Of a DNA stretch of 64,000 nt, positions 4,547-41,049 are shown piece by piece. The stretch is taken from contig CAVRJV010000014.1 of the NCBI GenBank assembly GCA_963721485.1, forward strand, positions 139,134 to 203,133, in the 5' to 3' direction. The stretch is from an uncultured delta proteobacterium. GTDB taxonomy: Bacteria; Desulfobacterota; Binatia; Binatales; Binataceae. The notes beneath the pieces were generated by a model. That model did no database searches. It was not told the origin of the DNA and worked only from the letters and a program-made list of their open reading frames with translations. Every line of letters starts with the position of its first letter. The stretch's first letter is position 1. The position numbers and the translations under genes were made by a program.

Positions 4547-6188
4547 CTACTCGACATCGGCGATTACCAGCGGCGGCAGGTGCAGGTAGGTTATCGACGC
4601 CGAGCGCCCGAGCTCCGAGGTCGCCATCGCGATTGCTTCGTCGAGCGTGTCGGCCGCTTCCCATCCGAGCCGCGCCGCGACTTCCGGCTCCTCGCATCCC
4701 GCCGCGATCACGCGGCCGACGTGCTGGCGCGCCGGCTCGCCCCAGTACCACATGTAGAACGGATGCACGCCGTGGTACGCGTTGCCGTAGCGGTACATGT
4801 GGATGTAGGTCGGGTTGCGCGCGAACTCGCGCTCGAAAGTTTTCTCGAGCTCGACCGCGTCGGTCGTCTCGGCGAGGCATCGATGGAAAAACTCGATGTA
4901 ACTCGGATGATGCTCGGGGTGGAATTCGTCGCGCAGCGGATGACAGATGATCATCGTGCCGCCTTCGCGCACCAGCGGCTTGTTCCGATACATGTTGAAC
5001 AGGTAGCCGAGGCCGGTGCACTGCACGAGCACCGGATTCATGATCGAGTTGACGTTGTAGGGACAGATGTACGGCACGCCGACGATCAGGATGTCCGCCT
5101 GGCCCTTCACCGGCACCGCGTACTGCTGGAACACTCGCGCCAGCGCCTTCTGATGCACCGCCTCGGTGTCTCCCGCCCACACGCCGATCATTCCGTACGG
5201 CGCGGCGTAGTTGTGCAGCACGGTGCGGCGCATCTCGCTCGACATGTTGCGCATCGTCCACTGAAAGCCCTTCAGCCGCGTGCGATCCCAATCGGTGAAG
5301 TGGTCCTCGTTCTTGTGCAGGAAGTCGAGCATCCCGCCGTACATGCGGTTGTTGACGGCCGTCTCGATCTGAAAAATGTTGACCGACTCGTGAATCAGCT
5401 TGCCCATCCGGTCCGACGAGCGATGCAGCGCCGAGCGCGTCGGGTCCATGTACGAGTGCGAATCGCGCAGCGTGCCGACGTTGTGGTGATGGCGCAGGCT
5501 CTGATACGGCGCGAGCCCGACCGCGACCGACTTGTGCCCGCCGTCCATCGGCACCAGGTTGATGTTGAGATAGATGAGCAGGTCGGACTCGGCCGCGCGG
5601 CGCGACAGCCAGACTTCCTCGCCATGCTCGGTCTTGCCGAGCATCGCCAGCTCGGCGCGATTCTCGGCGTCGAAGTTGTACAGCCGGTCCGGCCAGTACT
5701 GCTTGAACGCGCGCTCGCCGACCACGCGGCGAATTTCCGCTTCCGTCATCCGCCGATGGAGCGAGGTCGCGATGATCAGATGCACGTCGTCGACGCCGTA
5801 GTCGGCGAGCGTCTGCAGCACCTGGTTGAGCAGGCGCTCGCGAATGTCGGGCCGGCGCATCTGCGGCAGCGGCAGGCTGATATCGTCGATCGCGATCGTC
5901 ACGCGCATGTTGGGACTTGAGCTGCGCGAACAGCGGGTCCTGGTTCTCCGGATGGAGCAGGGCATAGCGAATCGCTTGGTCGGGGTCGGCGAGCGGATCC
6001 AGCGGCGGCGGCGGATAGATGACGCGGGTGCCGACCGGCAGCTTCTCGAACAGAAATTCGTCGCCGTAGGGAATGATGCGGCGCTCGGAGCGTCGATTGA
6101 CCTTGACCACCAGGTCGCTGCGCGCGCCGACTTCGTGCCGCAGCTCGGCGGTTTTAAGTTCCTTGAGTTTGGCTTCAGGCCGCGCCAT
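4547..6188 (-). CDS. LarA-like / DUF2088 (lactate racemase N-terminal domain family) protein; one frameshift near 5915
   Basis: The N-terminus [12 protein letters not shown]...[55 protein letters not shown] (ATG 6186-6188) lies inside the 3957-6842 frame. The body [14 protein letters not shown]...[22 protein letters not shown]...[16 protein letters not shown] lies in frame 4547-6880. The overall architecture matches the LarA family. Confidence 0.55.
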
Positions 6189-6189
6189 C

Positions 6190-6990
6190 CGAGCCTCGCG
6201 TCGATCGTTCGTTGTCGTGGTTGAGTTCCAGGTCTGTTGTCGAAATCGTCGAGCTGCTGCGTATCCGAGGCCTTCTCGAAATGGATCACCGGCCATTGCC
6301 GGCTGAGCGCGGCGGCGCGCAATCTGCGGTCGGGGTTGACGGCGACCGGATGTCCGAGCGCGGCGAGAAACGCGGTGTCGTAGTGCGAGTCGGCATAGCC
6401 CCAGCAATCCGCGAGATCGATGTCGTGCTCGGCGGCGTAGTCTGCGCACCAGACGGATTTTTCGTCGCCCGCCATCACAGGTTCGGCGAGACGGCCCGTC
6501 GCGCGGCCGCGGCTGAAGACGAATCGGTTGGCGGCGAAGTCGGCGATGCCGAGATGACGCGCGAGCGGCGCCACGATGAAGTCCGGCGAGCCGGTGACGA
6601 GCACCGGCTCGATTCCGGCCTCGCGATTTGCTTCGATCAATTCGACTGCGCGCGGAAACAGATGGCCGATGAGGATGCGCTCGCAGTATTCCTCGCCGAG
6701 CGAGAACAGGCGGTCGCGCGAGACGCCCTTGAACGCCTCGAACAGGACTGTGTTCAGCAGCCGGCGGTCGCGCTGCTCGGCGATATACAAGCGCGGGATT
6801 CGCGCGGCGAAGCCGAGCAGGTAGGAGACGCGCCCGGTCCATTCGCCGACGTTGGCGAGGGTGAAAATGGCGGCATGCACGAGGTTCAGATCGACCAGCG
6901 TGCCGTCGAGATCGTAGAAGGCGGCGCGGCGCTTCGAGGCCTTGGCGGGCGTGCGAGTTGGAGCGTTTTCTTATGAGTGTAAACTGACAT
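6190..6990 (-). CDS. HAD-superfamily hydrolase, subfamily IB (phosphoserine-phosphatase-like)
   Basis: ORF 4547-6880 begins [13 protein letters not shown]...[24 protein letters not shown]...[28 protein letters not shown]. The HAD motif I ([12 protein letters not shown]) is found just upstream in the same frame. A possible ATG at 6988-6990 is in the -1 frame, implying an indel. The 3' end is not resolved. Confidence 0.5.
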
Positions 6991-7164
6991 GTCAGTCTAG
7001 TTTGGGCTCAAAAAAAGAGCTGCCGTTCGGAGCGGCTTCACCGCGTCGTGCGCGCAGCAAATTTCAGCAGCTCGGGACGCGCGACTCCGCTCAAGGCCGA
7101 AGTGCGAGAATCTCTTCGACCAGCGCCGCGATGTCGGTGGCGTTGCTGCGCGAGAGCATCCCGA

Positions 7165-7653
7165 TCACTTCCTTGATGCCGCCGAGGATGCGTAGGAGAC
7201 GGCGCGCGTGTCCGAGTTGCGCACCAGGTTCATCTCGATGCCGAGATCGAGCGAGCGCTTGATCAGCGCCGCGATGCGGTCGTAGAAATCCTGGATCTTG
7301 TCGTCGAGCTCGTGGTCGAAGCCGGTCGAATGGTTGAGCAGGATGTCGGTCAGCTCGCGCTCGGCGAGCACATAGCTCAGCACCCGGCTCAGATTCGCGC
7401 GCAATTGATCGACCGGGTCGGGCTCTCCCGGGCCTGGCCGCAGGCGCTGAATGCGATGCGTCAGCTCGGTGACGACCTGCTCGAGCAATTCCTCGAACAG
7501 GTCTTTCTTGTTCTGGAAATAAAGATAGAACGTGCCGCGCGCGATGCGGGCGCGGGCGATGATGTCCGCGACATTGGTCCTGTGATATCCCTTGCGCGCA
7601 AAGATGCGCTTGGCGTGGCGCAGCACTTGCGCGCGTCGGGCTTGGCGTTCCAT
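7165..7653 (-). CDS. TetR/AcrR family transcriptional regulator (C-terminus possibly frameshifted)
   Basis: The N-terminal helix-turn-helix region is typical of TetR: RAQVLRHAKRIFARKGYHRTNVADIIARARIARGTFYLYFQNKKDLFE. It is divergent from the PPOX gene. Confidence 0.8.
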   Translation of the reverse strand: MERQARRAQVLRHAKRIFARKGYHRTNVADIIARARIARGTFYLYFQNKKDLFEELLEQVVTELTHRIQRLRPGPGEPDPVDQLRANLSRVLSYVLAERELTDILLNHSTGFDHELDDKIQDFYDRIAALIKRSLDLGIEMNLVRNSDTRAVSYASSAASRK

Positions 7654-7748
7654 CGACGCGGTCTCCGTGCGGAAAGTTGAGCGTAGTGCGGGATACCGGG
7701 CAGTGTCAAATCCATAACGGGAGTGTTACGAAACTCGGAGGTGTTTGG

Positions 7749-8202
7749 ATGAGCGACTCGAAATTCTGGGAGAAGGTTCACGCGGCGGCGGCGAAGGCTA
7801 CGTGGGCATACCTGGCGACTGCCGTTGGCAGATCAGCCCAAGGTCCGCGTCGTGCATCCGGCGTTCGAGGGCGAGCGGGTGTGGGTCGCGACTGGACGCG
7901 CGTCGGCGAAGGCTCGGCATATCGACAAGAACCCCAAGGTCGAGCTCTTCTACCAGATCGGCGCCGACATGGTGCATCTGACGGTGACAGGCAAGGCGAA
8001 ATTTGTCGAGGATGTGGCGGAGAAAAAACGAATCTGGAACGGCAAGGTGTTCGACTACGATCTCTCGCAATTCTGGCCCGGCGGTCCCGAGTCGAAGGAC
8101 TTCGGCCTGATGCTGATAACGCCGGATCGCGTCGAGCTGACGTCTCTGGCCGAAATGACGACCGGAAAGAAGCCTGAGGTGTGGCGCGCGTCGGGGAAGT
8201 AA
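7749..8202 (+). CDS. pyridoxamine 5'-phosphate oxidase family (PPOX class, FMN/F420-binding; general stress protein 26-like); frameshift near 7830
   Basis: The N-terminus MSDSKFWEKVHAAAAKATWAYLATA (ATG 7749, GGAGG 9 nt upstream) is in frame 7677. It continues in ORF 7825-8202 (VVHPAFEGERVWVATG...FYQIGADMVHLTVTGKAKF). Confidence 0.7.
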
Positions 8203-8215
8203 CTCTTACGATTGT

Positions 8216-8345
8216 TTCCGCTTCCTTCGAGGGAAGGGTTAGGGGTTAGGCTCTTTGGCGCGAGCGCAGAATTTGGAATTTTGGAATTTGGTCCCCCCAC
8301 CCGCCGCGCGTGGACGCGCGTCGGCCTCCCCCCACGAACGGGGGA
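8216..8345. repeat. REP/BIME-like hairpin modules (cttccttcgagggaagg + gttagggg; cgcgcgtggacgcgcg; cctccccccacgaacgggggagg)
   Basis: This stretch consists of palindromic GC-rich modules. The 8293-8345 segment is about 80% identical to 56457-56525, and the hairpin plus 'gttagg' module recurs at 56336-56376 and 63809-63850. Confidence 0.6.
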
Positions 8346-8352
8346 GGCAATT

Positions 8353-8853
8353 TTAGCTGCGCACGCGTTCGCGGGCGAAGATTGCGCGCTCTTCGGCGGT
8401 CATCTTTTCGCGGATGCGCGAGCCTTTGCCGAGATGCCGATAGAGTCCGCCTTCCGAGAAGTATTCCTCGTACGGCTGAGCCGGGATCGGCTCCGGCGGC
8501 GGCGTGTCGGTGATCTTCACGCCGAGCACGTCCTCGACCAGGCTGCTGTCGTACATCCTGACGGCGTCGTAGTCCGTCAGCAGCGCGCATACCTCGACGC
8601 AGATGTAACATCCGATGCATTCCTGGAAGCGATCCTGCACCGGCTGCACGCCGCGCCCCGGCACCGAGCCGGGCGACAGGTACTCGATGCATTGCACGGG
8701 GCAGAACTCGGGACACTTGCCGCACGGGAAGCACAGGTTCACGTCCATGAACGCGACTTCGCGCGGGCGCTTTTTCTTTTGTCCGACTTCTTCGGGAGTC
8801 TCGGGGATGCGGTCTTCCTTGAGCCGGCGCTTGATGATGTCGATGGCGCTCAT
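8353..8853 (-). CDS. 4Fe-4S dicluster ferredoxin-type protein
   Basis: The 166-aa ORF carries two Cys clusters: CFPCGKCPEFCP and CIGCYICVEVC (CxxCxxCxxxCP type). Confidence 0.75.
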   Translation of the reverse strand: MSAIDIIKRRLKEDRIPETPEEVGQKKKRPREVAFMDVNLCFPCGKCPEFCPVQCIEYLSPGSVPGRGVQPVQDRFQECIGCYICVEVCALLTDYDAVRMYDSSLVEDVLGVKITDTPPPEPIPAQPYEEYFSEGGLYRHLGKGSRIREKMTAEERAIFARERVRS

Positions 8854-8909
8854 GCTTCTATTGTCACGCCATTTGAGCGCGCCCGGTCAAGCGGCCCGGC
8901 GAATCGCAC

Positions 8910-10540
8910 TTATCTGACGGCGAAGATGCGGCCGGTTGAGGTTCCGACGTAAAGCATCCCCGACGCCGACGATGCGGCCGTCGTGATCTTGCCGAAGCTG
9001 CGCGATGTCCATACCGGGCTGCCGTCACCCGCCAGTACCGCGCCCATGTCGCCCGCCGCCGCATCGAACACGCCGTCATAGCCGAGCACGACCACGCCGG
9101 CATCGCCCGGTTTCAGCGTCGAATTCTGTCCATCGGAGTTGCCCGTCGGCCGAGACTCCGTAGATCGCGTCATCGCCCGCGAAAATTGTTCCCGACGGAG
9201 CGACCGCCGGTCCCGCGGTTACCGAATGCGCGTAGCTCAAGTGCCACAACTGGTTGCCGTTGCTTGAATCGATCGCATACATGCCGCCGCCCGCCGATCC
9301 CGCGTACACGACATCGTCCGCAGTAGGCGACCGATCCGGAGAATCCGCCTTCGGGCTGGAACGTCCACAGCACCGCGCCGTCCGATGCGATCGAGTGACA
9401 GCGCCGCGCGAGGCTCCCACGACCACGCCGTCCGGCGTCGCCGCGGCTGTATTCACCGATCCGACACTCACGCGCCAGTTGAGAACCCCCGACGCGCTGA
9501 CAGACACCAGGTCGCCGCCGCCACCGAAGCGTAAATGGCGCATGATCGGCTCACCGCGAGCGGTCCCGCGCTCTCGCCAATTTCAAGATTCCACAGGACT
9601 GCCGCCGGCGGGACCAATCGCGGCGAGGGACGTGCTCGACGCCATCGCGATCACAGTGCCGTCGGGCAACACTGCCGGCGACGAGCCGTCGGCCTCGCGC
9701 CGCATGGTTTCCTTGCCGTTCGAATCCAGCCCGTGCAGCACGCCGTCACGCGTGATGAAGAATATCGAGTCCGTCGGGGCCCGTCGCGATTCTTCCGCGT
9801 ACCTCGGCGCCCGCATCGAAGGTCCACATCAGAACGCCCGCGCTGCGCGCCGACACGGCCGGCGTGCTTGCTCCTGCCGGCTCGACGGCGCCTTTGGGCG
9901 TCGAGGTAGCTGTCGGAGTAGCGGAGGGCTCGGACACAAAAACATCGTCCCGCCGCTCGACGGGCACGGGCAGGATGGGGCGCCGCATGAATTGACGTCG
10001 GTATAGACGCCGATTCCTACCTGCTGGCTGCTCACTCCGGAATTGCTGGCAAGGATGCAGACGCATCCCGCGTTTCCGGTTACGTAATTGGCCGCCAAGG
10101 TCGCCCGGACGGCTGCGCTTGCAGCATAGTGCTGTCCGTCGAACGTCCACAGGGTGGCCGATCCGGCCGTAATATCTCCGAATTTTACTTTCGTTTGCCT
10201 CGTGAACGTTCCGATCGCATTGAATGCGACTGTTCCGCCGGTCGGTACGCCGCTGGGTCCGGTCGCCACGATGTTGCTGCTGGTTGCGGCCGGGCGCGGC
10301 GTCAACGTTGGCGTAATAGTCTTGGTGGGCTTAGGAGTTTTCGTCGCGGGCGGCGTCGGGGTGAAAGTGGGCGAGACGGGGGCGCCGGTCGAGATCACAA
10401 TTGAATCTAGCTGGGAGTTGGGAGTCGCGGTTGCCGTCGGGCTGCTGCTGCCGCTGCCGCCGCAACTGAGCAATCCCTCCGAAAGCGAGCAACACAACCG
10501 GCGCGACCACCAGCAATCTGAGCCACCGCGATAACATCAA
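8910..10540 (-). CDS. secreted lipoprotein with Thr/Pro-rich linker and PQQ-like beta-propeller repeats; multiple frameshifts
   Basis: A signal peptide MLSRWLRLLVVAPVVLL (ORF 10331-10540) is followed by the lipobox LLSCGG and a TPTPPATKTPKPTKTITPTLTP linker (ORF 9829-10497). PQQ-type repeat segments follow (NGNQLWHLSYAHSVTAGPAV..., DGVLHGLDSNGKE...) across ORFs 9076-9543, 9583-9816 and 8910-9173. Confidence 0.5.
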
Positions 10541-21582: not shown

Positions 21583-23217
21583 GTGAGCAACAAAAAGCAA
21601 TGGCTCGAGACGACCTACAAGCAGGCGAGCGAGCGCCCGGTCCGCTTCTCGACCGTCTCCGACATGGAGATCGATCCGCTCTACACGCCCGAGGATGTGA
21701 GCGGCGCCTACGACGACGCGCTCGGCAATCCGGGCGAGTTTCCGTACACCCGCGGCGTATACGGCTCGATGTATCGCGGGCGCCTGTGGACGATGCGCCA
21801 GTTCGCGGGCTTCGGCCTCGCCGAGGACACCAACGCGCGCTTCCATTTCCTGCTCGGCCAGGGCCAGGACGGGCTCTCGACCGCCTTCGACATGCCGACG
21901 CTGATGGGCTACGACGCCGACCACGAGCGCGCGCGCGGCGAAGTCGGACGCGAGGGCGTCTCGGTCTCCACCGTCCACGACATGGCGACGCTGTTCGATC
22001 GGATCCCGCTCGACAAGGTCACCACCTCGATGACGGTGAACTGCTCGGCGTCGGTGCTGCTCGCGATGTACCTGGTGGTGGCCGAGCGCAACGGCATGCC
22101 GTGGGAGCGCGTCGGCGGCACGATCCAGAACGACATGCTCAAGGAGTACATCGCGCAGAAGGAATGGATTTGTCCGCCGCGTCCGGCGCTCAGAATCGTC
22201 ACCGACATGATCGAGTTCTGCGCGCGCAAGGTTCCGCGCTGGCACGCGGTATCGATTTCCGGCTACCACATCCGCGAAGCCGGCTCGACCGCGGTGCAGG
22301 AACTCGCGTTCACGATCGCCGACGGCATCTGCTACGTCGAGGAAGCGGTCAAGCGCGGGCTCGACGTCGACGAATTCGCGCCGCGGCTGTCGTTCTTCTG
22401 GAATCTGCACAACGATTTTCTCGAAGAGGTCGCCAAGCTGCGCGCCGCGCGCCGGATGTGGGCGCGAATCATGAAGGATCGCTTCGGCGCGAAGAATCCG
22501 AAATCGATGATGCTGCGGACGCATGCGCAGACCGCCGGCGCCTCGCTGACCGCGCAGCAGCCGATCAACAACGTCGTGCGCGTCGCGATCCAGGCGCTGG
22601 CGGGCGTGCTCGGCGGAATCCAGTCGCTGCACACCAACTCGATGGACGAGACGCTCGCGCTGCCGACCGAGCAGGCCGTGATGGTCGCGCTGCGCACGCA
22701 GCAGGTCATCGCCGAAGAGACCGGCGTCACCAACACGATCGATCCGTTCGGCGGCAGCTACGCGGTCGAGGCGCTGACCGACCGGATGGAGCGCGAGGCG
22801 ATCGACTATATCCGGCGCATCGACGAGATGGGCGGGATGGTCAAGGCGATCGAGACCGGCTATCCGCAGCGCGAGATCGCCGAGGCCGCATTCCACTTTC
22901 AGCGTCAGCTCGAACAGGGAATCAAGACCGTCGTCGGCGTCAACAAGTATTCGATTCCCGAGGAAATTCCGATCGCGACGCTGAAGATTGATCCCGAGAT
23001 CGAAGAGCGGCAGATTCAGCGCGTGCGCAAAGTCAAGCGCGAGCGCAATTCGGTCGCGGTCAAGGAAGCGCTCGCGCGCGTTTCCGAGGCGTGCCGCTCG
23101 GGCGAGAATCTGATGGGGCCGATTTGCGAGGCGGTGCGCCGCGACGCGACCGTCGGCGAAGTTTCAGATATCTTTCGCGCCGAGTTCGGCGTGTACACAG
23201 ACCCAGGCTGGATTTAG
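21583..23217 (+). CDS. acyl-CoA mutase large (substrate-binding) subunit lacking a B12 domain; methylmalonyl-/isobutyryl-CoA mutase family (IcmA-like)
   Basis: The ORF is intact at 544 aa and ends without a C-terminal cobalamin-binding domain. Its sequence ([26 protein letters not shown]...[19 protein letters not shown]) places it in the MCM-family substrate-binding barrel. Confidence 0.85.
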
Positions 23218-23220
23218 GCG

Positions 23221-23637
23221 ATGGCGGAAAAGAGACTCAGAATTCTGGTCGCGAAACCCGGACTCGACGGTCACGATCGCGGCGCAAAGATTATCGCGCG
23301 CGCGCTGCGCGACGGCGGCTTCGAGGTAATCTACACCGGGCTGCATCAGACGCCCGAGATGATCGCCGAGGCCGCCGTGCAGGAAGACGCCGACGCGGTC
23401 GGGCTCAGCGTGCTGTCGGGCGCGCACATGACGCTGTTTCCCGAGGTGATGCGCCTGCTGAAGGAGCGCGGCGCCGGCGACGTCGCGGTTTTCGGCGGCG
23501 GGATCATTCCCGACGACGACGCGGTGAAGCTCAAGCAGATGGGCGTGCGGCAAATCTTCACGCCCGGCGCGTCGACCGAAGACATCGTCAAGTGGGTGCG
23601 CGAGAATGTCGCGCGCCGCGCACTTAGGTTCCGATGA
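23221..23637 (+). CDS. cobalamin (B12)-binding small subunit of acyl-CoA mutase (IcmB-like)
   Basis: The ORF is intact at 138 aa. It carries the B12-binding Rossmann motif: [34 protein letters not shown], with DxHxxG. Confidence 0.85.
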
Positions 23638-27697: not shown

Positions 27698-27782
27698 GAA
27701 GCCGCAACAAGAGGCGACTTCGATGCCTCCGCTGGCGCTGGGCGCCGAAGGTTAGAGACCCAAAGAGGAGTTTTCCCTATCA

Positions 27783-28325
27783 ATGGATCTCGTGTTTATT
27801 CATGGGCCGGCTGCGGCGGGGAAGCTTACTGTAGGTCGTGAGTTGCAGAAGATTACCGGGTTGCCGGTGTTTCACAACCAGTTGGTCGTCGATGCGCTTA
27901 CTCCTGTGTTTGAGTTTGGGAGTCAGGAATTTGTAAGGCTGCGCGAGAAGATGTGGCTGGCTGTATTTCGGGAAGCCGCTCGCGCGGGCAGGTCGATAAT
28001 ATTCACCTATGTGCCCGAGAAGACTGTTACCGAGTCCTTTGTGCGCAACACGGTTAGCCTGGTTCATGCCGAGGGTGGACGGGTGCTATTCGTCGAGCTT
28101 TCGTGCCCCGCATCGGTGCAGGAGGAACGTGTCGAGGCGGCCTCGCGCGCTGAGTTTGGTAAGATCAGATCAGCGAAAGTGTTGCGGGAGTTGCGGGAGA
28201 GTGGCGCTTTCGATGTGGGAGCATTACCGGATTCGGGGTTGAAGATCGATACGACCAAGGTTGGAGCGGCGGAATCGGCGCGCACCATCACCAAGTTCTT
28301 CGGAATTACAGAAACCGAATCGTGA
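27783..28325 (+). CDS. P-loop NTPase/kinase (AAA_33-like ATP-binding protein)
   Basis: The ORF is intact at 180 aa and carries a Walker A motif (FIHGPAAAGKLTV). Its GC content is visibly lower than that of its neighbours. Confidence 0.55.
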   Translation: MDLVFIHGPAAAGKLTVGRELQKITGLPVFHNQLVVDALTPVFEFGSQEFVRLREKMWLAVFREAARAGRSIIFTYVPEKTVTESFVRNTVSLVHAEGGRVLFVELSCPASVQEERVEAASRAEFGKIRSAKVLRELRESGAFDVGALPDSGLKIDTTKVGAAESARTITKFFGITETES

Positions 28326-28335
28326 TAAGTGATAG

Positions 28336-29250
28336 CTACTGCTGGTTTTGTTGGTTGGAACCGCTGTTGGGATCGATAGGACGAGGAAGATCTGCTTGTG
28401 GTTCTATCGTTAGTTCTACCGACATCACCTGTTTGCCGCCGTGACTCCTATATACGCCGCGCATAGGTGGTACGTCGGAGTAGTCGCGGCCGATAGCGAC
28501 TCTGATGTGGCGCTCGTCGATGCATGCATCCGTTGGTTGGATCGAAGCCGGTCCATCCCGGCCGCGGCAGCTGAGCTTCGAGCCAGGCGTGACTGGCTTG
28601 CGCGCCGACCGACTCCATCGCCGGTTGGCGGCGGGAGCCAGATAGCCGGAGACGTAGCGGGCGGGATGCCGGCAAGCCGCAGCACCCCGATGGTCAGATG
28701 CGCAAAATCCTGGCATACGCCGCCGCCGACATTGAGGATTTCGTCGGCGGTCGATTGCACATTGGTCATGCCCGGCTCGTAGATCGAACTGGTCGCGCAC
28801 GAAGGCCACGATTCGGTTCGCGTAGGCGGCGACGTCTTCTGAAGGATCGGGCTTCGCCATCCAGAAAAACTTGCGCATCGGCTCGCTGAACGGAACGTGG
28901 CGGCTCGCGTTGAGAAAGTCGTACTCGACGCGATTGCGCGACCAGATCCTCGAGTGAGAAATTCGCCGAACGGCATCGGAAGCGCTGGGCGGCGCGGTAC
29001 TGAACCGCTCGACCAGCGATTGGCGCGACAATCAGCTCGGGATGCGGGTCGTGGATCGAAAATCCGATATACGCGGTTGCCGTAGTAGTCGTCGATACTG
29101 ACAGTGGACGCGGCGGGCGTCAGATCCAGGTCAAATTCGAGGCATCGCTGAGTCGGCGCCCTCCAGCGGCCGCATCCGCACCTCGTTGTGCGAATCGTAG
29201 GCCGGCATCTGGTATTCGAAGCGGGTCGTGTGGCAGATCCGCAGTAGCAT
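28336..29250 (-). CDS. transglutaminase-like cysteine peptidase family protein (with bacterial transglutaminase N-terminal domain); frameshifted
   Basis: The N-terminus [28 protein letters not shown] has its ATG at 29248-29250. The catalytic region GVCQDFAHL...[11 protein letters not shown]...[21 protein letters not shown] is spread over ORFs 28425-28976, 28336-29031 and 28448-28675. Confidence 0.75.
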
Positions 29251-29268
29251 CACGCAACTTCACTCGGT

Positions 29269-30220
29269 CTATTCAATCGGCCTTGAGGTAGCGTTCGAAG
29301 ACCTCGTCGCCCAGGCGCCGCGCATCCATCCTGAATCTGAATCAGAAACTGATGCAACCCCGATTTGATGACCTCGCGCGGACCGCTTCGAGTGCATCAT
29401 CGCCAGCAGATCTTCGAGCTGGGCGGAGTGGCGGCGAAGGTTCGGGCGCCAGGCTCTTGATGCGGCTGAGCGACGTCTCGAGCATCGCGAGCGCGAACCT
29501 GGCCGAGCGCGGAAAGGTCGGATCGAAGAGCAGGATTTCGACCACGTTGTCGATTCTGATCGCGTTGCCGAAGCGCTTGCGATAGGCCTCGAGCGCCGAC
29601 GCGCTGCGCAGCACCGCCGCCCATTGCAGGATGTCGAGCCGGGCCGCCGATATCCTCCAGCCGCGGCAGCAGGAAGTGATACTTGACGTCGAGCATCCGC
29701 GAGACGTCCTCGGTCCGCTCGAGCATGATGCCGAGTTGCATGAAGTCGTAGGCGATGTCGCGCGGGATCGTGCTCTGGCGGATTCCGGACGAGGCGATAG
29801 AAGCTGTCCTTGAGATCGGCGAAGAACGCGAACACGCCGGGCGAGACGAAAAGCTCCGGGCGTCCATCCTGTGCGTTCAGATAGAGCGTGTTCAGGTCGA
29901 GCCACAGCTCGGACGAGATGTAGTGGCGCAGCGAGATGGCGTTGTTGCGCGCGGTGTTGATGCAACTGCGAATCGAATTAGGGTTGTCGTTGTCGAGCGC
30001 GAAGAAGTTGAGCACCGAGGCTTCGTCGGCGGTCGATGTAGGTCTCGGCGAACAACTCGCGCTCGCCGAAAATCGCGAGCAGCGGCTCCCACGGCTGCGC
30101 GTCGCGCGGCGGACTTTCGATCAGCAGATGGTAGTTGACGTCGACCAGGCGCGCGCGCCATTCGGCGCGTTCCAGATTGCGCGCCGCCCAGAACAGATGA
30201 CTCGCGATTCGCCGGAGCAT
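29269..30220 (-). CDS. alpha-E domain protein (DUF403)
   Basis: The N-terminus [33 protein letters not shown] (ORF 29978-30220) is a hallmark of the alpha-E family. The C-terminal parts lie in ORFs 29342-29965 and 29269-30015. Its position between the ATP-grasp and transglutaminase-like genes is typical of the conserved triad. Confidence 0.75.
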
Positions 30221-31791
30221 CTAGGCCTCCAGCACCCAGGTATCCTTGCTGCCGCCGCCTTGCGAGGAATTCACGATCAGCGAGCCCTCGCGCAGTGCGA
30301 CGCGCGTCAGTCCGCCGGCCAGCACGCGCGGTTTGGCTCCGAGCAGCACGAAGGGCCGCAAATCGACGTGCCGCGGCGACCATCGCTGCATTCCGCTCGT
30401 CAGAGCCATTGTGAATGATCGTCGGATGGACCGAGAGCGGGATGACCGGCTGCGCGATGAAGGCCGACGGATCGTTGACGATTCGCTCGCGCGTCTGCGC
30501 CAGCTCCTCTTCGCTCGCCTTGGGTCCGATGACGACGCCGTAGCCGCCCGATGCGCCGGTCGGCTTGACCACGTAGCGGTCGAGATTGTTGCAGTACCGC
30601 TTCGCGCACTTCGGGGTCGCGCATCAGGTAGGTCTCGACGATCGGCAGAATCGGCTCCTCGCCCAGGTAGTAGCGAATCATCGCGGGCGTGTAGGCGTAG
30701 ACGGCCTTGTCGTCGGCGACCCCGGTGCCGACGCCATTGGCGATCGCCGCGTTGCCGGCGCGCAGCACCGCGGTCAGGCCCGCGACGCCGAGCAGCGAGT
30801 CGGGGCGGAAGACCAGCGGATCGAGGAAGTCGTCGTCGATGCGCCGGTAGAGGACGTCGATTTGCCGCAGGCCCGTGAACGTCCTTCATGTAGAGCTTGC
30901 GATCGACGCAGACCAGGTCGCACGCCTTCGACCAGCTCGATGCCCATCTGCTGCGAAAGGAACACGTGCTCGAAGAACGCCGAATTGAACGGGCCCGGCG
31001 TGAGCAGCGCGATGGTCGGATTGCGATTTGCCGTTGGGCGCCAGCTCCATCAGGCATTGCAGCAGGTCGGCCGGGATAGCGCTCGACGCTGCGCACGCGC
31101 GATCGCGCGCATCAGAGTCGGGCATCAGGCGCGTCATGACGACGCGATTTTCGATCACGTAGGACACGCCCGTCGGCGTGCGCACGTTGTCTTCCAGCAC
31201 GTAGAAGCGGCCGTCGGCGCCGCGCACGAGATCGATTCCTGCGACGGTGACGAAGTTGCCCAGCGGCGGCTTGATGCCGACCGCGGCGCGCCGAAACTGC
31301 GGGCATCCGAGCACCAGGTCGCGCGGGACGACGCCGTCCGGACAGGATGCAGCCGTCGCCGTAGACGTCGCGCGAGGAAGGCGTTGAGCGCGCGCACGCG
31401 TTGGATCAGGCCGGCTTCGAGCGTGGCCCAGGTCTGCGGCGTCGATGACGCGGGGAATCGGATCGAAGGGGAAGATGCGCTCCGATCCGTCGGCGGCGCC
31501 GTAGACGTTGAAGGTCACGCCCATGCGCCGGAACATCCGGTCGGCCCGCGCGCAGATTTCGGTGAATTGCGCCGGCGGCATCGAGAACATCGTCTCGATC
31601 ACGCCTCCGCAGCCGGTCCGCGGCTGGCTTGAAAGATCCAGCATCTCGTCGAAAACGCTTGCGTCGGTCTTGTACGCCGCCCAAACGGGCACCGCCTTGC
31701 CTGTTTCGGAAACAGTCGAAGTCCATCGACACATCACCCCACCGCCGTGAGCTGGCGCAGAATTCAGCATCGCCAGCACGACCGGTATCAT
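30221..31791 (-). CDS. circularly permuted ATP-grasp type 2 protein (DUF404/DUF407); frameshifted
   Basis: Pieces lie in ORF 30886-31791 (VFDEML...MGVTFNVY...[10 protein letters not shown]...[21 protein letters not shown]), ORF 30400-30768 ([36 protein letters not shown]) and ORF 29892-30572 ([16 protein letters not shown]). The C-terminus ...[20 protein letters not shown] is in ORF 30221-31096. Confidence 0.75.
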
Positions 31792-31817
31792 TTAAAGAGC
31801 AATCGACGGGCCAGTAA

Positions 31818-33750
<1,933 letters not shown>

Positions 33751-33800
33751 GCTCGTCGGCGTACAGCAGATTCGCGCGCGAGTCGCGCGGCGCAGCGACG

Positions 33801-35707
33801 TCAGGCATTGCTCACCTCGCGAATCGGCACATCGTCGAGTGCCGATCCGTCGGCGGCAACGATTCGGCCGGCGGCGATCTGGTAGATGCGGTCGGCGCGC
33901 GAGGCGGTCGTGCGGCGATGCGTCGCGAGAATCACCATGCGGCGGTCGGGCTCCTCGTTCACCCAATCGCGCAGGCCGAGCATCACGGCGTCTTCGGTCG
34001 CGACATCGAGCGCTGAGGTCGGTTCGTCGAGCAGGAGGATCGGCGCGTCGCGCAAAATCGCGCGGGCGAGGCCAATCCGCTGCGCCTGCCCGGACGGAGA
34101 GCTTCGATCCTTTTTCGCCGAGCATCGTGTCGAGGCCGGCGGGCAGCGAGCGAACGAATTCGCCGAGGCCGGCGCGGTGAATCGCCTCGAGCCACCTCGG
34201 CCGCCGATGAGTCGGGGCGCCCGTACGCAACGTTGTCGCGGATGGTCGCGGTGAAGAGCGGATTTTCCTGCAGCGCGACCGACAGCATTCCGCGCCACGC
34301 GGGAAGATCGAAGCCGTCGATTGGCGCGGCGTCGAGCAGGATGCGGCCGACCGCCGGATCGAAGAATCTCACGATCAGCGAGATGATCGTGCTCTTGCCG
34401 GAGCCGCTGGGACCGGCGATGGCGGTGATCTCGCCGGCGCGCGCCTCGAGGCTCACACCGCTGAGCACCGGGCGTGCGCGGGTCGTAGCCGAAGGTCACG
34501 TGGTCGAAGGTCAGCGCGGTCGCGGACTTTGGCGGGATCGCGTGTCCGCTCGCGACGCTTTGCTCCGGCGCTCTGACCGAGCATCTCGAGCACGCGCGAG
34601 ATCGCGACGACCACGTCCTGCATGCTGCCCCACAGGTCGGCCAGGTTCCGCGTGCGCGCGCTGACGTTGGTGAAAAGCGTGAGCGAACCCTGGAACAGTC
34701 CGAGCGAAACGGCAACGTGCGCGAGGCCCGCGGTCCCGCCCGCCATCACTTCCGTCGCGCCGACGTACATCGCGGCGACATACGCGAGACCGCGCACCGT
34801 GTTGGTCATGACGCGATAGCGCGCGAGCCTCAGGCGTGCGCGGCGGCCGGCCAGGAACGCGTCCCAGTTATCGCGCGCGTAATTTTCCGTTTCGCGCGCC
34901 TCGGTGCCGAAAGCCTTGACGGTTCTGATCGACGCGAGCGTTTCTTCGATTCGCGTGGTCGCCTGTGCCGTCGTCTCGCGCTCGGCGATGAACCCGGCGC
35001 GCATCGAATCGGCGAACATCCACGCCAGCATGAGGTTCGCGGGCATCAGCAATGCGGCGATCAACGCCATTCGGTAGTCGTAACCAGAGCAGGTAGAGCA
35101 GCGTGCCGAGGGCGGCGGGAACGAAAATCAACGGCTGGACGATCAAGCCGTTGATCACACCCGGAATCGCGGCGGAGTCCTGGAACATCCGGAAAATCGC
35201 GTCGCCGATTTTTTCCTCGGAATGAAAGCGGACGCTCAGTTCCTGCATGCGAGTGTAAAGGTTGACGCGGAAGAGGTTGCTGATGCGCTGCAGAATCCAA
35301 ATCCCGTAGCCGAAGAGAAGTCCGAGAACGAACACGGCCGCCGACCGCCGCGATACCGCCGAGGACGCATCCGTGAATGAGGACCGTGCGCCGATCTGCA
35401 TCGAGCGGCACGTGCAGCATCCACGCCTGCGCGCGGCGTGAGCGCGGCGCCATTGCCGACGACGTCGAAGAATATGCGCGTGAGATTCAGCCCGATGAGC
35501 CCGCCGAGCAATGCGGGCAACGTGAGCAGGAACAGGTAGACGAGATGGCGGCGGTACGGCCGGACGAACGGCCACACCCGCGCCACCAGGCGGAAGACGT
35601 CGCGCGAGCGCAAGCTGGCGAGCGTCGGGGAACGCCACCTCGCGTGCGGGGCGGCGGCGCGGCGATGGTCGGTTCAGCGTCCAATCGATGCCAGCGAGTG
35701 TTTTCAT
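33801..35707 (-). CDS. ABC transporter permease/ATP-binding protein (second exporter-type half-transporter); frameshifted
   Basis: The N-terminal TMD (VWPFVRPYRRHLVYLFLLTLPALLGG) lies in ORFs 35236-35613 and 34453-35070. Walker A (IAGPSGSGKST) is in ORF 33983-34468. The C-terminus (LLLDEPTSALD...VILATHR) is in ORF 33801-34715. Confidence 0.8.
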
Positions 35708-35844
35708 GACTAACCTTCATGTGGCGTAAGTAAGTGAGTCCTTCAGAGGATCATAACGGCCCGCGGAGCGGCGGGTAAAGTACAAAGTCGCGAGTGTTTG
35801 ATGGTAACTTCGCGGAGTCGGTGCTATCAATTAAGGAGCGAATT

Positions 35845-36655
35845 ATGCCTGCGCTGATTTTCGAAAAACGCGAATCACGTCGCTTATCTCACACTCAACC
35901 GGCCCGAGGTTCACAATTCGCTGAATCCCGAAATGCTCGTGAGCCTCGCGGCGGCGTGGAAGGAGATCGATGAGCGACGACGCGGTTCGCGCGACGATCG
36001 TGACGGGCGCGGGCAAGGTCGCGTTCTCGGCCGGCGCCGATCTCGGGCAGTTGATTCCGCTGTTCACCGGCGCGCGCAAGCCCGAGGACGAATGGGACAG
36101 CAAGCTGCTCGCGGACCGCAAGCTCGGCGATATCGCGCTGCTGCGCGGCTACGACATGGACAAGCCGGTGATTTCGGCGGTCAACGGATTTTGCATCGCG
36201 GGCGGAATGGAATTCATCCAGGGCACCGATCTTCGCGTCGCGTCGGAGAACGCGAGCTTCGGCTTGCAGGAAGTGAAGTGGGCGATCATCCCGGCGGCCG
36301 GATCGCTGGCGCGACTTCAGCGGCAGATTCCGTACTGCAAGGCGATGGAGATTCTGCTGACGGGCAACCGCATCGACGCGCAGGAGGCGTGGCGGCTCGG
36401 GACTCGTCAACTACGTCGTGCCGCAGGAGAAGCTGATCGCGAAGGCGGAAGAACTTGGCGGCGACGATCGCGCAGAACGGACCGCTGGCGGTGCGCAAGA
36501 TCAAGGAAGCGGTGCGGCGAACGTCGGGGCGTCCGTACGAAGAGGCGTTCAAGATCGAAAACGAAATCGCGCGCGAGGTGATGAAGTCCGAGGACGCGAA
36601 GGAAGGTCCGCGCTCGTTCATGGAGAAGCGCAAGCCCAACTACAAAGGCCGATAG
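35845..36655 (+). CDS. enoyl-CoA hydratase/isomerase (crotonase) family; frameshifted
   Basis: AAGGAG lies 8 nt upstream of ATG 35845. ORF 35970-36581 gives IVTGAGKVAFSAGADL and ISAVNGFCIAGGMEF. ORF 36455-36655 gives the C-terminus EGPRSFMEKRKPNYKGR. Confidence 0.8.
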
Positions 36656-39551: not shown

Positions 39552-40382
39552 TCAGCTGATTCGGGGGGCGGTTAGGGTGCCGGTCAGGTGGTAGGGTTGG
39601 GGGCCCGGGGGGTGGGGCAGGGTTGAGAGGAGCATTCCTAGTTGGGCGGAGGCGGCGGGAGTCGTCGATAGGGTGAACTGGATTGCGAGCGCACTTTCGC
39701 CAGGATCGGGCGCTAGTTGGATTGTTCCCTCAGCGGTCAACGTCAAGTCGCCGCCGCTCGTCTTGAATTCCTCGATCGTTAGCGTGCCTTGATCCAGTTT
39801 GAATTTTGAATGGCCCTGGCCGAGACGGATTGGCGACGATGCCAGCGGCGACACCAGCGTCAAGCCGGCGGCGCTCAGGTCGCCGCCGCCGCTTTCCGCG
39901 ATGTCATCGGAAGAGAGCAAGAGACTGCCGCTGCCGGAGAGTCTGCCCGACGCGTCGGCGCCGGGAATCGCGACGAAGTGCTGACGCGCGATATCCACCG
40001 AGTTGAGGTCGTAGCTGATTGCGGTGCCGCCGCTGCTGGGACGGAGCATGACGTTGACGATGCCGTCGAAGAGCGCGGCCTTCACGCGGACGCCCGGATG
40101 CATCGAGAGCATCGAGAGAAACGCAGGCGCGATCGTTACGGTTGGGCTCTCGACGATCAGCCCGGGGGAGGCGGGACGCGTGGAGATCAGGCGCACTTCG
40201 GAAAGCCGCGCGCCGAAGGGGAAGCTCGCGCTCTGACTCGTGCTCGAGACCTCGAGGCCCATCGGCGCGAGCAGTTTCGACAGAGTGGCGGAGTAGGGGA
40301 AGGTGGAAATCAGGTACGCGGCGAACAGCGTGAGGCCGACCACCGCGTAGCCGACGCGCACGAGAGCCGGTCGCCGCAGCAT
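39552..40382 (-). CDS. gspN: type II secretion system protein N
   Basis: It is the last gene of the gsp operon. The N-terminus MLRRPALVRVGYAVVGLTLFAAYLIS is a signal anchor, followed by a periplasmic domain. Both size (about 276 aa) and position match GspN. Confidence 0.65.
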   Translation of the reverse strand: MLRRPALVRVGYAVVGLTLFAAYLISTFPYSATLSKLLAPMGLEVSSTSQSASFPFGARLSEVRLISTRPASPGLIVESPTVTIAPAFLSMLSMHPGVRVKAALFDGIVNVMLRPSSGGTAISYDLNSVDIARQHFVAIPGADASGRLSGSGSLLLSSDDIAESGGGDLSAAGLTLVSPLASSPIRLGQGHSKFKLDQGTLTIEEFKTSGGDLTLTAEGTIQLAPDPGESALAIQFTLSTTPAASAQLGMLLSTLPHPPGPQPYHLTGTLTAPRIS

Positions 40383-40404
40383 GGCGGAGACGCCGCCGTT
40401 TAAA

Positions 40405-41049
40405 TCAGGTGTTCTTGGCGAGCGCGACACAGGTGAGGTCAACGTCATACGAATGCGTGTCCTGGGTGCGGCGCTGGATGCGGATATTCGATACGCCAAT
40501 CGGCATCGAGAGCGAATTGATGCCGTAGAGGGCGTCAACCAACTGCGCGAGATTCACGTTGTCGAGCTTCAACTGCACGCTGTACTCGGTGAAGCCGTCG
40601 CTGAGCTTGCGATCGGAGCCGGGCGTGATCGAGCCGATCTTCTCGCGTCCGACGCTCTTGGTCATCGACGCTTCGACGACCGAGAACAGCGAGAAATCCT
40701 TGCCCATCGGCACCGTGCGACGCTCGGCGTTGGCGAGGTCGCCCTTGAGCTGCGCATAGGTGGCGGCGAGACGGCGAACCTGCGCGAGATCGTTCTGCCG
40801 CTGGGCAATCTTCGCGTCGAGCCCCGAGCTGAGGTCGACGATCGGCGTATAGACAAGATTGTAGATGAGAAAAACGCCGACCAGGCCGGCGGCGATTTGC
40901 ACCAGGATGCGTTCGCGCGGCTCGAGTTTCTGATAGCGGCTGCGCGCCTGCGCGAGATAGGGATCGATGCGGACAGCCGCCTGCTTAAGCCACGGCCGAA
41001 GCAGGTCCATCACTCGTGCGCGCAAATTGTCGATCCATTCTCTAAGCAT
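40405..41049 (-). CDS. gspM: type II secretion system protein M
   Basis: The ORF is intact at 214 aa. It has an N-terminal TM helix (ILVQIAAGLVGVFLIYNLVYTPI) and sits between gspL and gspN. Confidence 0.75.
   Translation of the reverse strand: MLREWIDNLRARVMDLLRPWLKQAAVRIDPYLAQARSRYQKLEPRERILVQIAAGLVGVFLIYNLVYTPIVDLSSGLDAKIAQRQNDLAQVRRLAATYAQLKGDLANAERRTVPMGKDFSLFSVVEASMTKSVGREKIGSITPGSDRKLSDGFTEYSVQLKLDNVNLAQLVDALYGINSLSMPIGVSNIRIQRRTQDTHSYDVDLTCVALAKNT

Follow-up and report, generated by a model that had tools for sequence, protein, structure and literature searches.

An ABC exporter pair beside an ATP-grasp/alpha-E/transglutaminase-like trio in a Candidatus Binatus-like genome: probably two neighbouring modules, the second with a predicted sigma-54-type promoter

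In the genome of an uncultured delta proteobacterium (assembly GCA_963721485.1, contig CAVRJV010000014.1), five genes follow one another on the minus strand at positions 28336-35707 of the 64,000-nucleotide (nt) stretch of DNA analysed here (the window). In order of transcription they encode two ATP-binding cassette (ABC) exporter half-transporters, ABC_A and ABC_B, a circularly permuted ATP-grasp protein, an alpha-E domain protein and a transglutaminase-like protein. The last three form a trio that an initial annotation of the window had recognised as a known, conserved but functionally uncharacterised association, and the three domain families, their order and their tight coupling bear this out. 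The position of the trio behind an exporter raises the question of whether the two ABC proteins secrete what the trio makes. The initial annotation had predicted a single operon with dedicated export. Its gene identities, order and strand were confirmed by Pfam matches on the raw open reading frame (ORF) fragments (Transglut_core/Bact_transglu_N, Alpha-E, CP_ATPgrasp_1/2, and ABC_membrane plus ABC_tran) and by an intact relative, L001, which carries the five genes in this order on a 2.58-Mb ENA contig.

On the matter of export, we arrived at a different answer. We assign a probability of about 0.7 to a reading in which a Candidatus Binatus-like (Binatia) genome carries two independent modules side by side on one strand, namely an ABC exporter and a trio with its own sigma-54-type promoter. 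The exporter module would be a translationally coupled ABC pair whose transcription probably starts in the divergent region 5' of ABC_A. The trio module would be cytoplasmic, and a separate sigma-54-dependent promoter, situated immediately behind the ABC_B stop codon, would drive it. The window trio is a further member of the known orphan trio, in Binatia, beside a generic exporter.

Exporter and trio across relatives, and the spacer between them

A scan of a genome collection with an ATP-grasp alignment gave at least 80 trio loci, spread over many phyla and with 49-70% identity; they sample the family and are not a census of it. In nearly all of these the ATP-grasp, alpha-E and transglutaminase-like genes stood in the same order. 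Among the genome matches listed (L002-L081), this ABC pair was present at 0 of 80 trio loci, including those of two Binataceae metagenome-assembled genomes at approximately 70% identity, and it was present at 0 of 3 metagenome trio loci (L084-L086) with 75% ATP-grasp identity. The trio was therefore without the ABC pair at 83 of the 83 loci examined outside the clade of the window, including the nearest relatives at 70-75% ATP-grasp identity, and the check proposed at the outset, conservation of the ABC linkage across trio-bearing genomes, fails. Pair and trio occurred together only in close relatives, in which the ATP-grasp protein was at least 81% identical to the intact orthologue P0007: L001, L082, L083 and the P0237 contig. 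In all of these the flanks were syntenic as well, with enoyl-coenzyme A (CoA) hydratase on one side and acyl-CoA dehydrogenases plus methylmalonyl-CoA mutase on the other, and because the flanking genes are syntenic too, the conserved adjacency is not independent evidence. ABC_B homologues at 83-90% identity belong to Candidatus Binatus sp. (NCBI naming), which is placed in Binataceae, Binatales, Binatia, phylum Candidatus Binatota. On the loci compared, the linkage is confined to one Candidatus Binatus-like clade.

The exporter can also be followed without reference to the trio. Metagenome contigs were scanned for the ABC_B outward-loop motif LWNGLFGYLE, which yielded 60 loci, 34 of them evaluable (at least 500 nt downstream of ABC_B); the trio was present in 24 of the 34 and absent from 10. 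Among the trio-less loci, ABC_B was followed directly by the syntenic phosphatase gene in L098 and L118; the flavin adenine dinucleotide (FAD)-oxidoreductase-like gene came next in L106 and the phosphatase gene in L110, L111 and L117, and L088, L093, L122 and L134 had other contexts (short-chain dehydrogenase, phosphodiesterase, acyl-ACP-synthetase-like gene). Since the trio occurs without the ABC pair and the ABC pair without the trio, the two modules are separable.

The spacer between the modules proved to be longer than first described. The ATG at 31791, initially taken as the ATP-grasp start, is an artefact of an open off-frame stretch, and the true start is the ATG at 31726-31724, with GGTGGGGTGA before the ATG. 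With this start, the distance from the ABC_B stop (31818) to the ATP-grasp start (31726) is 91 nt, not 50 nt or less as had been stated for all junctions; L001 has 88 nt at this place, and another 24 relatives have 90-118 nt. The description of tight junctions holds elsewhere, as ABC_A and ABC_B overlap, the alpha-E start (30220) abuts the ATP-grasp stop (30221), as had been noted, and 22 nt separate alpha-E from the transglutaminase-like gene.

Within this spacer, 4 nt past the ABC_B stop codon and 71 nt 5' of the ATP-grasp ATG, lies a putative sigma-54 (RpoN)-type -24/-12 element, TGGCCCGTCGATTGCT (31798-31813, minus strand), with GG at 31812-31811 and TTGC at 31802-31799. It was recognised by conservation and by its match to TGGCACG-N4-TTGCW, 11 of whose 12 specified positions it fits, and it is the sole match with at most one mismatch in the whole window on either strand. 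The match falls within a 91-nt target and on the correct strand. Alignment of the ABC_B/ATP-grasp spacers from 28 relatives showed GGC..CG.TTGC.C as the one invariant block, the rest diverging and even containing a 20-nt indel; in 17 distinct spacers GG and TTGC were invariant, and no other invariant spacer block was present. The element was found 60-107 nt upstream of the ATP-grasp gene in 32 of 32 loci with an ATP-grasp identity of at least 63%, and it also precedes the trio in the ABC-less loci L002, L003 and L084-L086. Scores of at least 10/12 were obtained for 37 of 109 upstream regions, compared with 0 of 109 control windows inside the gene. Because a lone match is non-significant by itself, the case for a promoter rests on position, invariance and travel with the trio. 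No sigma-70 promoter was found in the spacer. Since the conserved sigma-54-type promoter lies between ABC_B and ATP-grasp, the trio is predicted to be its own transcription unit; its activation would depend on an enhancer-binding protein, and nitrogen limitation, which is reported to induce the Anbu operon of Pseudomonas putida, would be the most plausible trigger.

The trio-less relatives carry traces of the same element after ABC_B, matching 11/12 positions in L117 and 9/12 in L122 and L134, and it is lost in L098 and L118. Because such remnants are kept after ABC_B, the ancestral order in the clade would have been ABC pair, promoter, trio, and because the remnants differ among L117, L122/L134 and L098/L118, several independent deletions of the trio are indicated, which would have had different end points and left the exporter in place. 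As part of the two-module reading, and with the same confidence, we take the juxtaposition to have arisen once in this clade and not to be obligatory, with repeated deletion of the trio and retention of the exporter.

The spacer contains a second conserved box, GCTGGCGATGCTGAATTCTGCGCCAGC (31751-31777, minus strand), which forms a 7-bp inverted repeat around GATGCTGAATT and is situated in the predicted 5' untranslated region (UTR), between the sigma-54 element and the ribosome-binding site. In relatives the box reads GCGATGMTGAATTCCGCGCCAG or GGCGATTAATTCCGCGGCAAAT, the GGCGATTAATTCCGCGGCAAAT form occurring in more distant relatives. Its folding signal is weak (single-sequence z of -0.1 to -2.4), RNAalifold gave no consensus structure for the spacer, and neither the spacer nor the box matched Rfam. 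A search for a small precursor-peptide ORF nearby, which the initial annotation had proposed as a check, found none that was convincing. A spacer ORF of 14-18 codons ending at the ribosome-binding site was rejected as a precursor peptide, as its frame, start and stop vary between relatives; its conserved bases need no peptide, because the promoter and the UTR box explain them.

One alternative is a single five-gene operon, with the trio producing or modifying a peptide that the heterodimeric ABC exporter would then secrete. All five genes are on the same strand, no terminator is predicted between ABC_B and ATP-grasp, and the adjacency recurs with constant spacing in 24 of the 34 metagenome loci and in L001, L082, L083 and the P0237 contig, over 60-94% ABC_B identity. 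We nevertheless consider this reading unlikely, because the linkage is missing from all 83 trio loci examined outside the clade, 10 loci retain the exporter but not the trio, some of them at the orthologous position, a conserved internal sigma-54-type promoter travels with the trio, and the flanks are syntenic wherever the adjacency is conserved. Moreover, the exporter has no C39 or C39-like domain and scores far below every curated exporter family cut-off, the neighbourhoods list no gene for a membrane-fusion or outer-membrane partner, and no convincing precursor-peptide ORF was found, the frame of the spacer ORF not being kept. Co-transcription of the five genes is thus not supported by the comparisons, given the 91-nt spacer with its conserved sigma-54-type element and the failing co-occurrence across genomes, and the same applies to dedicated export, given the 83 of 83 loci without the ABC pair, the 10 of 34 ABC loci without the trio and the trio's own predicted promoter. 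Separate transcription of the ABC genes had been named at the outset as a finding that would count against the operon; the internal promoter comes close to this, as a prediction from sequence and not from transcript mapping.

Several points weigh against the two-module reading. One promoter match per 128 kb scanned is non-significant when considered alone (0.58 expected, and at least one in 38 of 100 shuffles). No intrinsic terminator is predicted in the ABC_B/ATP-grasp spacer, and because none separates the modules, read-through from the ABC promoter is possible. Neither an enhancer-binding protein gene (GAFTGA motif) in the 64-kb window nor an Escherichia coli-type NtrC site near the promoter was found. 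The link to nitrogen limitation is borrowed by analogy from Pseudomonas, and Rv2411c was negative for GABA (gamma-aminobutyric acid)-trehalose synthesis, in which it was used as a negative control (bioRxiv 10.64898/2026.04.15.718621). Finally, adjacency is frequent within the clade (24 of 34 loci) at a constant spacing of 90-118 nt and down to 60% ABC_B identity, and some functional coupling of the ABC pair and the trio may exist. The corresponding alternative is a clade-specific functional juxtaposition, in which the exporter would carry an amide-linked product or conjugate of the trio across the inner membrane, with read-through from the ABC genes providing basal coupling and sigma-54 boosting the trio under stress. 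We regard this as quite improbable; if true, it would give the first hint that this widespread orphan trio makes a small molecule for export as opposed to a protein tag used inside the cell.

The exporter pair

ABC_A (33801-35707, minus strand) encodes a half-transporter of approximately 630 amino acids (aa) with a transmembrane domain (TMD) and a nucleotide-binding domain (NBD), as shown by Pfam ABC_membrane and ABC_tran matches on the intact L001 orthologue, to which it is 87% identical at the aa level after frameshift correction. It ends at the TGA at 33803-33801, and its start, the ATG at 35707, is plausible but uncertain; an N-terminal extension that includes LARDVFRLVARVWPFV can be read 5' of the GTG taken as the start in L001. 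ABC_B (31818-33808, minus strand; PF00664 and PF00005) encodes the second half-transporter of approximately 660 aa. Its start had been placed at 33750, and is corrected here to the ATG at 33808-33806, within the last codons of ABC_A (ATGCCTGA), because the resulting N-terminus, MPDVAAPRDSRANLLY, agrees with those of homologues P0121-P0240. ABC_B ends at the TGA at 31820-31818. The 8-nt overlap between its start and the ABC_A stop suggests translational coupling.

The intergenic region at 35708-35844, located by synteny with L001 between ABC_A (minus strand) and the divergent enoyl-CoA hydratase gene (plus strand, from 35845), probably contains the promoter of the ABC pair. Across 27700-36000, sigma-70-like matches were confined to this region, at 35830-35801 and 35779-35750 on the minus strand, although their number is at chance level (2 found versus 1.5 expected). 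A 37-codon TTG ORF occupies 35830-35717 in the same region. L001 (5578-6063) and many of L087-L146 encode, just upstream of ABC_A, a protein of 161 aa without a Pfam match, whose N-terminus looks by eye like a signal peptide; in the P0237 contig it is separated from ABC_A by 13 nt, and it is absent from the window and from L082.

By their domain content, ABC_A and ABC_B are ABCB-type (type IV fold) exporter half-transporters, each with a full TMD and NBD. The initial description as a TMD-NBD exporter pair is therefore sound, and a heterodimer is probable. The presence of a full-length TMD and NBD in each subunit is shared with TM287/288, BmrCD, TmrAB, Sav1866, MsbA, Atm1 and PCAT1, and the adjacent, overlapping genes are reminiscent of the heterodimeric exporters among these (TM287/288, BmrCD and TmrAB). 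The Walker A (GPSGSGKST), signature (LSSGQ), Walker B (ILLLDE) and H-loop (THR) motifs are kept. Both ATP sites look catalytically competent, with Walker A, the catalytic glutamate and the H-loop histidine retained at each. Retention of the glutamate and histidine at both nucleotide sites distinguishes the pair from TM287/288-type exporters, in which one site is degenerate.

Comparison with solved structures placed eukaryotic ABCB1-type proteins as the best PDB matches of the ABC subunits, and Sav1866, PCAT1 (TMD and NBD only), MsbA, NaAtm1 and TM288 as the best bacterial ones (E values of 1e-60 to 1e-67). All NCBIfam exporter families scored alike and far under their cut-offs, so that no curated family fits: MsbA_rel reached 302 bits (cut-off 780), MsbA_lipidA (TIGR02203) 294-297 (602), NF008381 206-236 (867), HlyB 250-278 (726), bacteriocin_ABC 183-186 (524) and NHLM ABC 191-220 (709-853). 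Neither a C39 peptidase nor a C39-like domain is present in the ABC pair, in which just 35-45 residues or so precede the first membrane segment, and no genes for membrane-fusion or outer-membrane partners were listed in the neighbourhoods examined. Assignment as a peptide or bacteriocin exporter (PCAT, or HlyB-type type I secretion) was rejected on account of the missing C39 domain, the sub-cut-off scores and the missing partner genes.

The first outward-facing loop of ABC_B (approximately 33390-33550, minus strand) is long and nearly invariant across relatives at 73-94% identity (GLDQAG.TA..AN.G.SLWNGLFGYLE). This loop is unusual for the exporter fold and may be relevant to substrate release or partner binding. 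Together with the absence of a peptidase domain, its length and conservation set the pair apart from PCAT1 and other ABCB-type exporters.

A third alternative takes the ABC pair as the lipid A or lipid-linked flippase of the organism (MsbA-like), unrelated to peptides. MsbA_rel and MsbA_lipidA are indeed the best NCBIfam matches, at approximately 300 bits, but their scores fall far under the cut-offs (302 versus 780, and 297 versus 602) and are barely above those of HlyB, HepA, CydDC or TAP models. Moreover, MsbA is a homodimer encoded by one gene, whereas here two diverged, translationally coupled genes are found whose products are approximately 30% mutually identical. We consider an MsbA-like flippase very unlikely. 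An MsbA/lipid-A affiliation had been put forward initially as a point that would count against peptide export; the pair does not belong to the MsbA clade, and this is of no help to the export idea, since no peptide-exporter family fits it either.

Frameshifts in the deposited assembly

None of the five genes is intact in the window. A six-frame map showed each of them split over two or three frames, and a frameshift-aware dynamic-programming alignment to the L001 proteins counted 44 frameshifts in 7.4 kb, distributed over ABC_A (7), ABC_B (10), ATP-grasp (11, single-base insertions), alpha-E (6) and the transglutaminase-like gene (10). Insertions of +1 nt accounted for 41 of the 44, and nucleotide alignment placed the extra bases outside homopolymer runs. 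After correction, the five genes contained no in-frame stops and their products were 84-92% identical to those of L001. In the ATP-grasp gene, 135 third-position differences from L001 were counted versus 26 at first and 18 at second positions; 122 codons differed only synonymously and 37 changed the amino acid, which resembles the intact flanking mutase gene. Judged from these codons, the genes have changed in the manner expected under purifying selection.

The density of single-base insertions is very uneven across 20400-41100, and a frame plot suggests that other parts of the window are rich in shifts too. Neighbouring genes on both strands are affected (enoyl-CoA hydratase, 4 shifts; luciferase-like, 2; FAD-oxidoreductase-like, 5), and zero shifts occur in the methylmalonyl-CoA mutase (21589-23214), B12-binding protein (23221-23622) and type II secretion system (T2SS) M/N (39558-41049) genes. 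Because the shift density extends into the flanks on both strands, a positional sequencing or consensus problem is indicated and not selection on one operon. A 268-aa ATP-grasp fragment from a 1.49-Mb contig on public record (P0001) is 100% identical, and thus the breaks sit in the deposited assembly. Taken together, the frameshifts look like a locally poor consensus of a long-read assembly and not like gene decay. That they are real and the whole cluster a decaying pseudogene array is highly improbable. In favour of decay, 44 shifts in 7.4 kb contrast with 0 in the mutase, B12-binding and T2SS M/N genes, the public record P0001 has the same broken ORF and a neighbouring 180-aa P-loop ORF is intact. 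Against it, 41 of the 44 shifts are +1 insertions, the corrected genes are without a single in-frame stop, divergence from L001 is mainly synonymous and at third positions, like that of intact flanking genes, and the raised density reaches the flanking genes on both strands. The case illustrates that, in a deposited long-read assembly, single bases inserted in error can disrupt all the genes of a stretch and displace apparent starts and spacers.

The trio and its likely role

The circularly permuted ATP-grasp amidoligase (30221-31726, minus strand; approximately 496 aa) matched PF04174 (3.3e-29) and PF14403 (5.9e-28) with 102 and 98 bits, respectively, well above the family cut-offs of 23 and 32. 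After frameshift correction it is 92.5% identical to the intact P0007 and retains the motif GGGSKDTW plus a further 10-residue motif. The alpha-E domain protein (29273-30220, minus strand; 313 aa) was identified by PF04168 matches on two fragments (1.3e-15 and 4.2e-14; 58 and 53 bits versus a cut-off of 20.8) and is 90.7% identical to its L001 counterpart after correction. The third gene (28336-29250, minus strand) encodes a transglutaminase-like cysteine peptidase/transamidase of approximately 300 aa, detected on a fragment by PF01841 (24.7 bits versus a cut-off of 23) and PF08379; both Bact_transglu_N and Transglut_core are recorded for the orthologues in L001, L082 and L083. The predicted Cys-His-Asp residues lie in GVCQDFA, SHAWLE and FDPTNG of the corrected sequence. 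No signal peptide or membrane segment was apparent in the three proteins when the corrected sequences were read by eye, and none of them matched an NCBIfam family.

The PDB offers few solved relatives. P0007 matched 3N6X, a "putative glutathionylspermidine synthase", at 6.6e-150, and this is the sole solved relative of the ATP-grasp protein; the name is a structural-genomics label and not a tested activity. The transglutaminase-like protein showed a weak match to 3ISR, a "putative cysteine protease", and no solved alpha-E relative was found in the PDB.

Downstream of the trio, an intact 180-aa ORF at 27783-28325 (plus strand) converges on the transglutaminase-like gene and encodes a P-loop kinase resembling chloramphenicol phosphotransferase (CPT; PF07931, 28 bits). 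It is frameshift-free though it adjoins the most error-dense gene, and it is absent from L001, where only 23 nt lie between the transglutaminase-like gene and the next one. A second, more divergent trio (28-37% identity) lies a few kb from the first in L016, L031, L037, L052, L058, L065, L078 and L079; judging by these neighbourhoods, the trio is often duplicated in tandem.

The trio of circularly permuted ATP-grasp, alpha-E and transglutaminase-like genes was reportedly described in 2009 by Iyer, Abhiman, Burroughs and Aravind. In the window, the three domain families, their order and their tight coupling all agree with it, and among the matches listed, ATP-grasp proteins from many phyla share 50-55% identity with the one found here. 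What distinguishes the window trio from the known one is that an ABC exporter pair immediately precedes it, an arrangement confined, among the loci compared, to this Binatia clade. With regard to catalytic logic, the trio may be likened to glutathionylspermidine synthetase/amidase (GspSA), in which an ATP-dependent amide ligase is paired with a papain-like cysteine amidase able to undo the bond. It differs from GspSA in that two separate proteins serve as ligase and cysteine enzyme, the latter being transglutaminase-like and not CHAP, and an alpha-E protein is added. As a working model, the ATP-grasp protein would activate a carboxylate as an acyl-phosphate and join it to an amine, giving an amide or isopeptide bond, the alpha-E protein would serve as its partner or specificity subunit, and the transglutaminase-like enzyme would hydrolyse or transfer the bond so made. 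The Pseudomonas rlo operon was rejected as an instance of the same system, since its ATP-grasp is RimK-like.

Valas and Bourne (2008) described the trio together with Anbu as the "Anbu operon" (PMC3235984), which was also treated by Fuchs et al. (2017) and Piasecka et al. (2018). The window trio departs from this four-gene arrangement in having no Anbu: its next gene is the convergent CPT-like kinase (FAD-oxidoreductase-like in relatives), and no proteasome-family gene was listed in the neighbourhoods of the window and of the relatives examined. In nitrogen-limited Pseudomonas putida, the Anbu operon (ATP-grasp, alpha-E, transglutaminase and Anbu) was the most upregulated gene set, according to Hervas et al. 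(2008) as cited in PMC3235984 and PMC5666114, and the sigma-54-type promoter predicted here fits this reported induction. The Yersinia ATP-grasp protein of the Anbu operon releases phosphate from ATP, and in the same study neither stable complexes nor peptidase activity were detected (PMC6376114). We found no paper that assigns a substrate to the trio. In L058 (Haloferula chungangensis, Verrucomicrobia; 4867-9877), the trio directly follows an NrtABCD-like nitrate/cyanate ABC importer consisting of an NMT1_2 binding protein, a permease and two ATPases, a nitrogen-assimilation context. The sigma-54-type promoter and this importer context are consistent with a role in nitrogen stress, without being proof of it.

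The trio is among the more widespread bacterial gene associations lacking a known function. A dedicated exporter would have given a strong hint as to what it makes, a hint that the comparisons take away. The sole useful gain is the conserved sigma-54-type promoter predicted for the trio in Binatia, which independently supports the idea derived from Pseudomonas that the trio is a regulated stress response, probably to nitrogen limitation, and which may provide a handle for metatranscriptomics.

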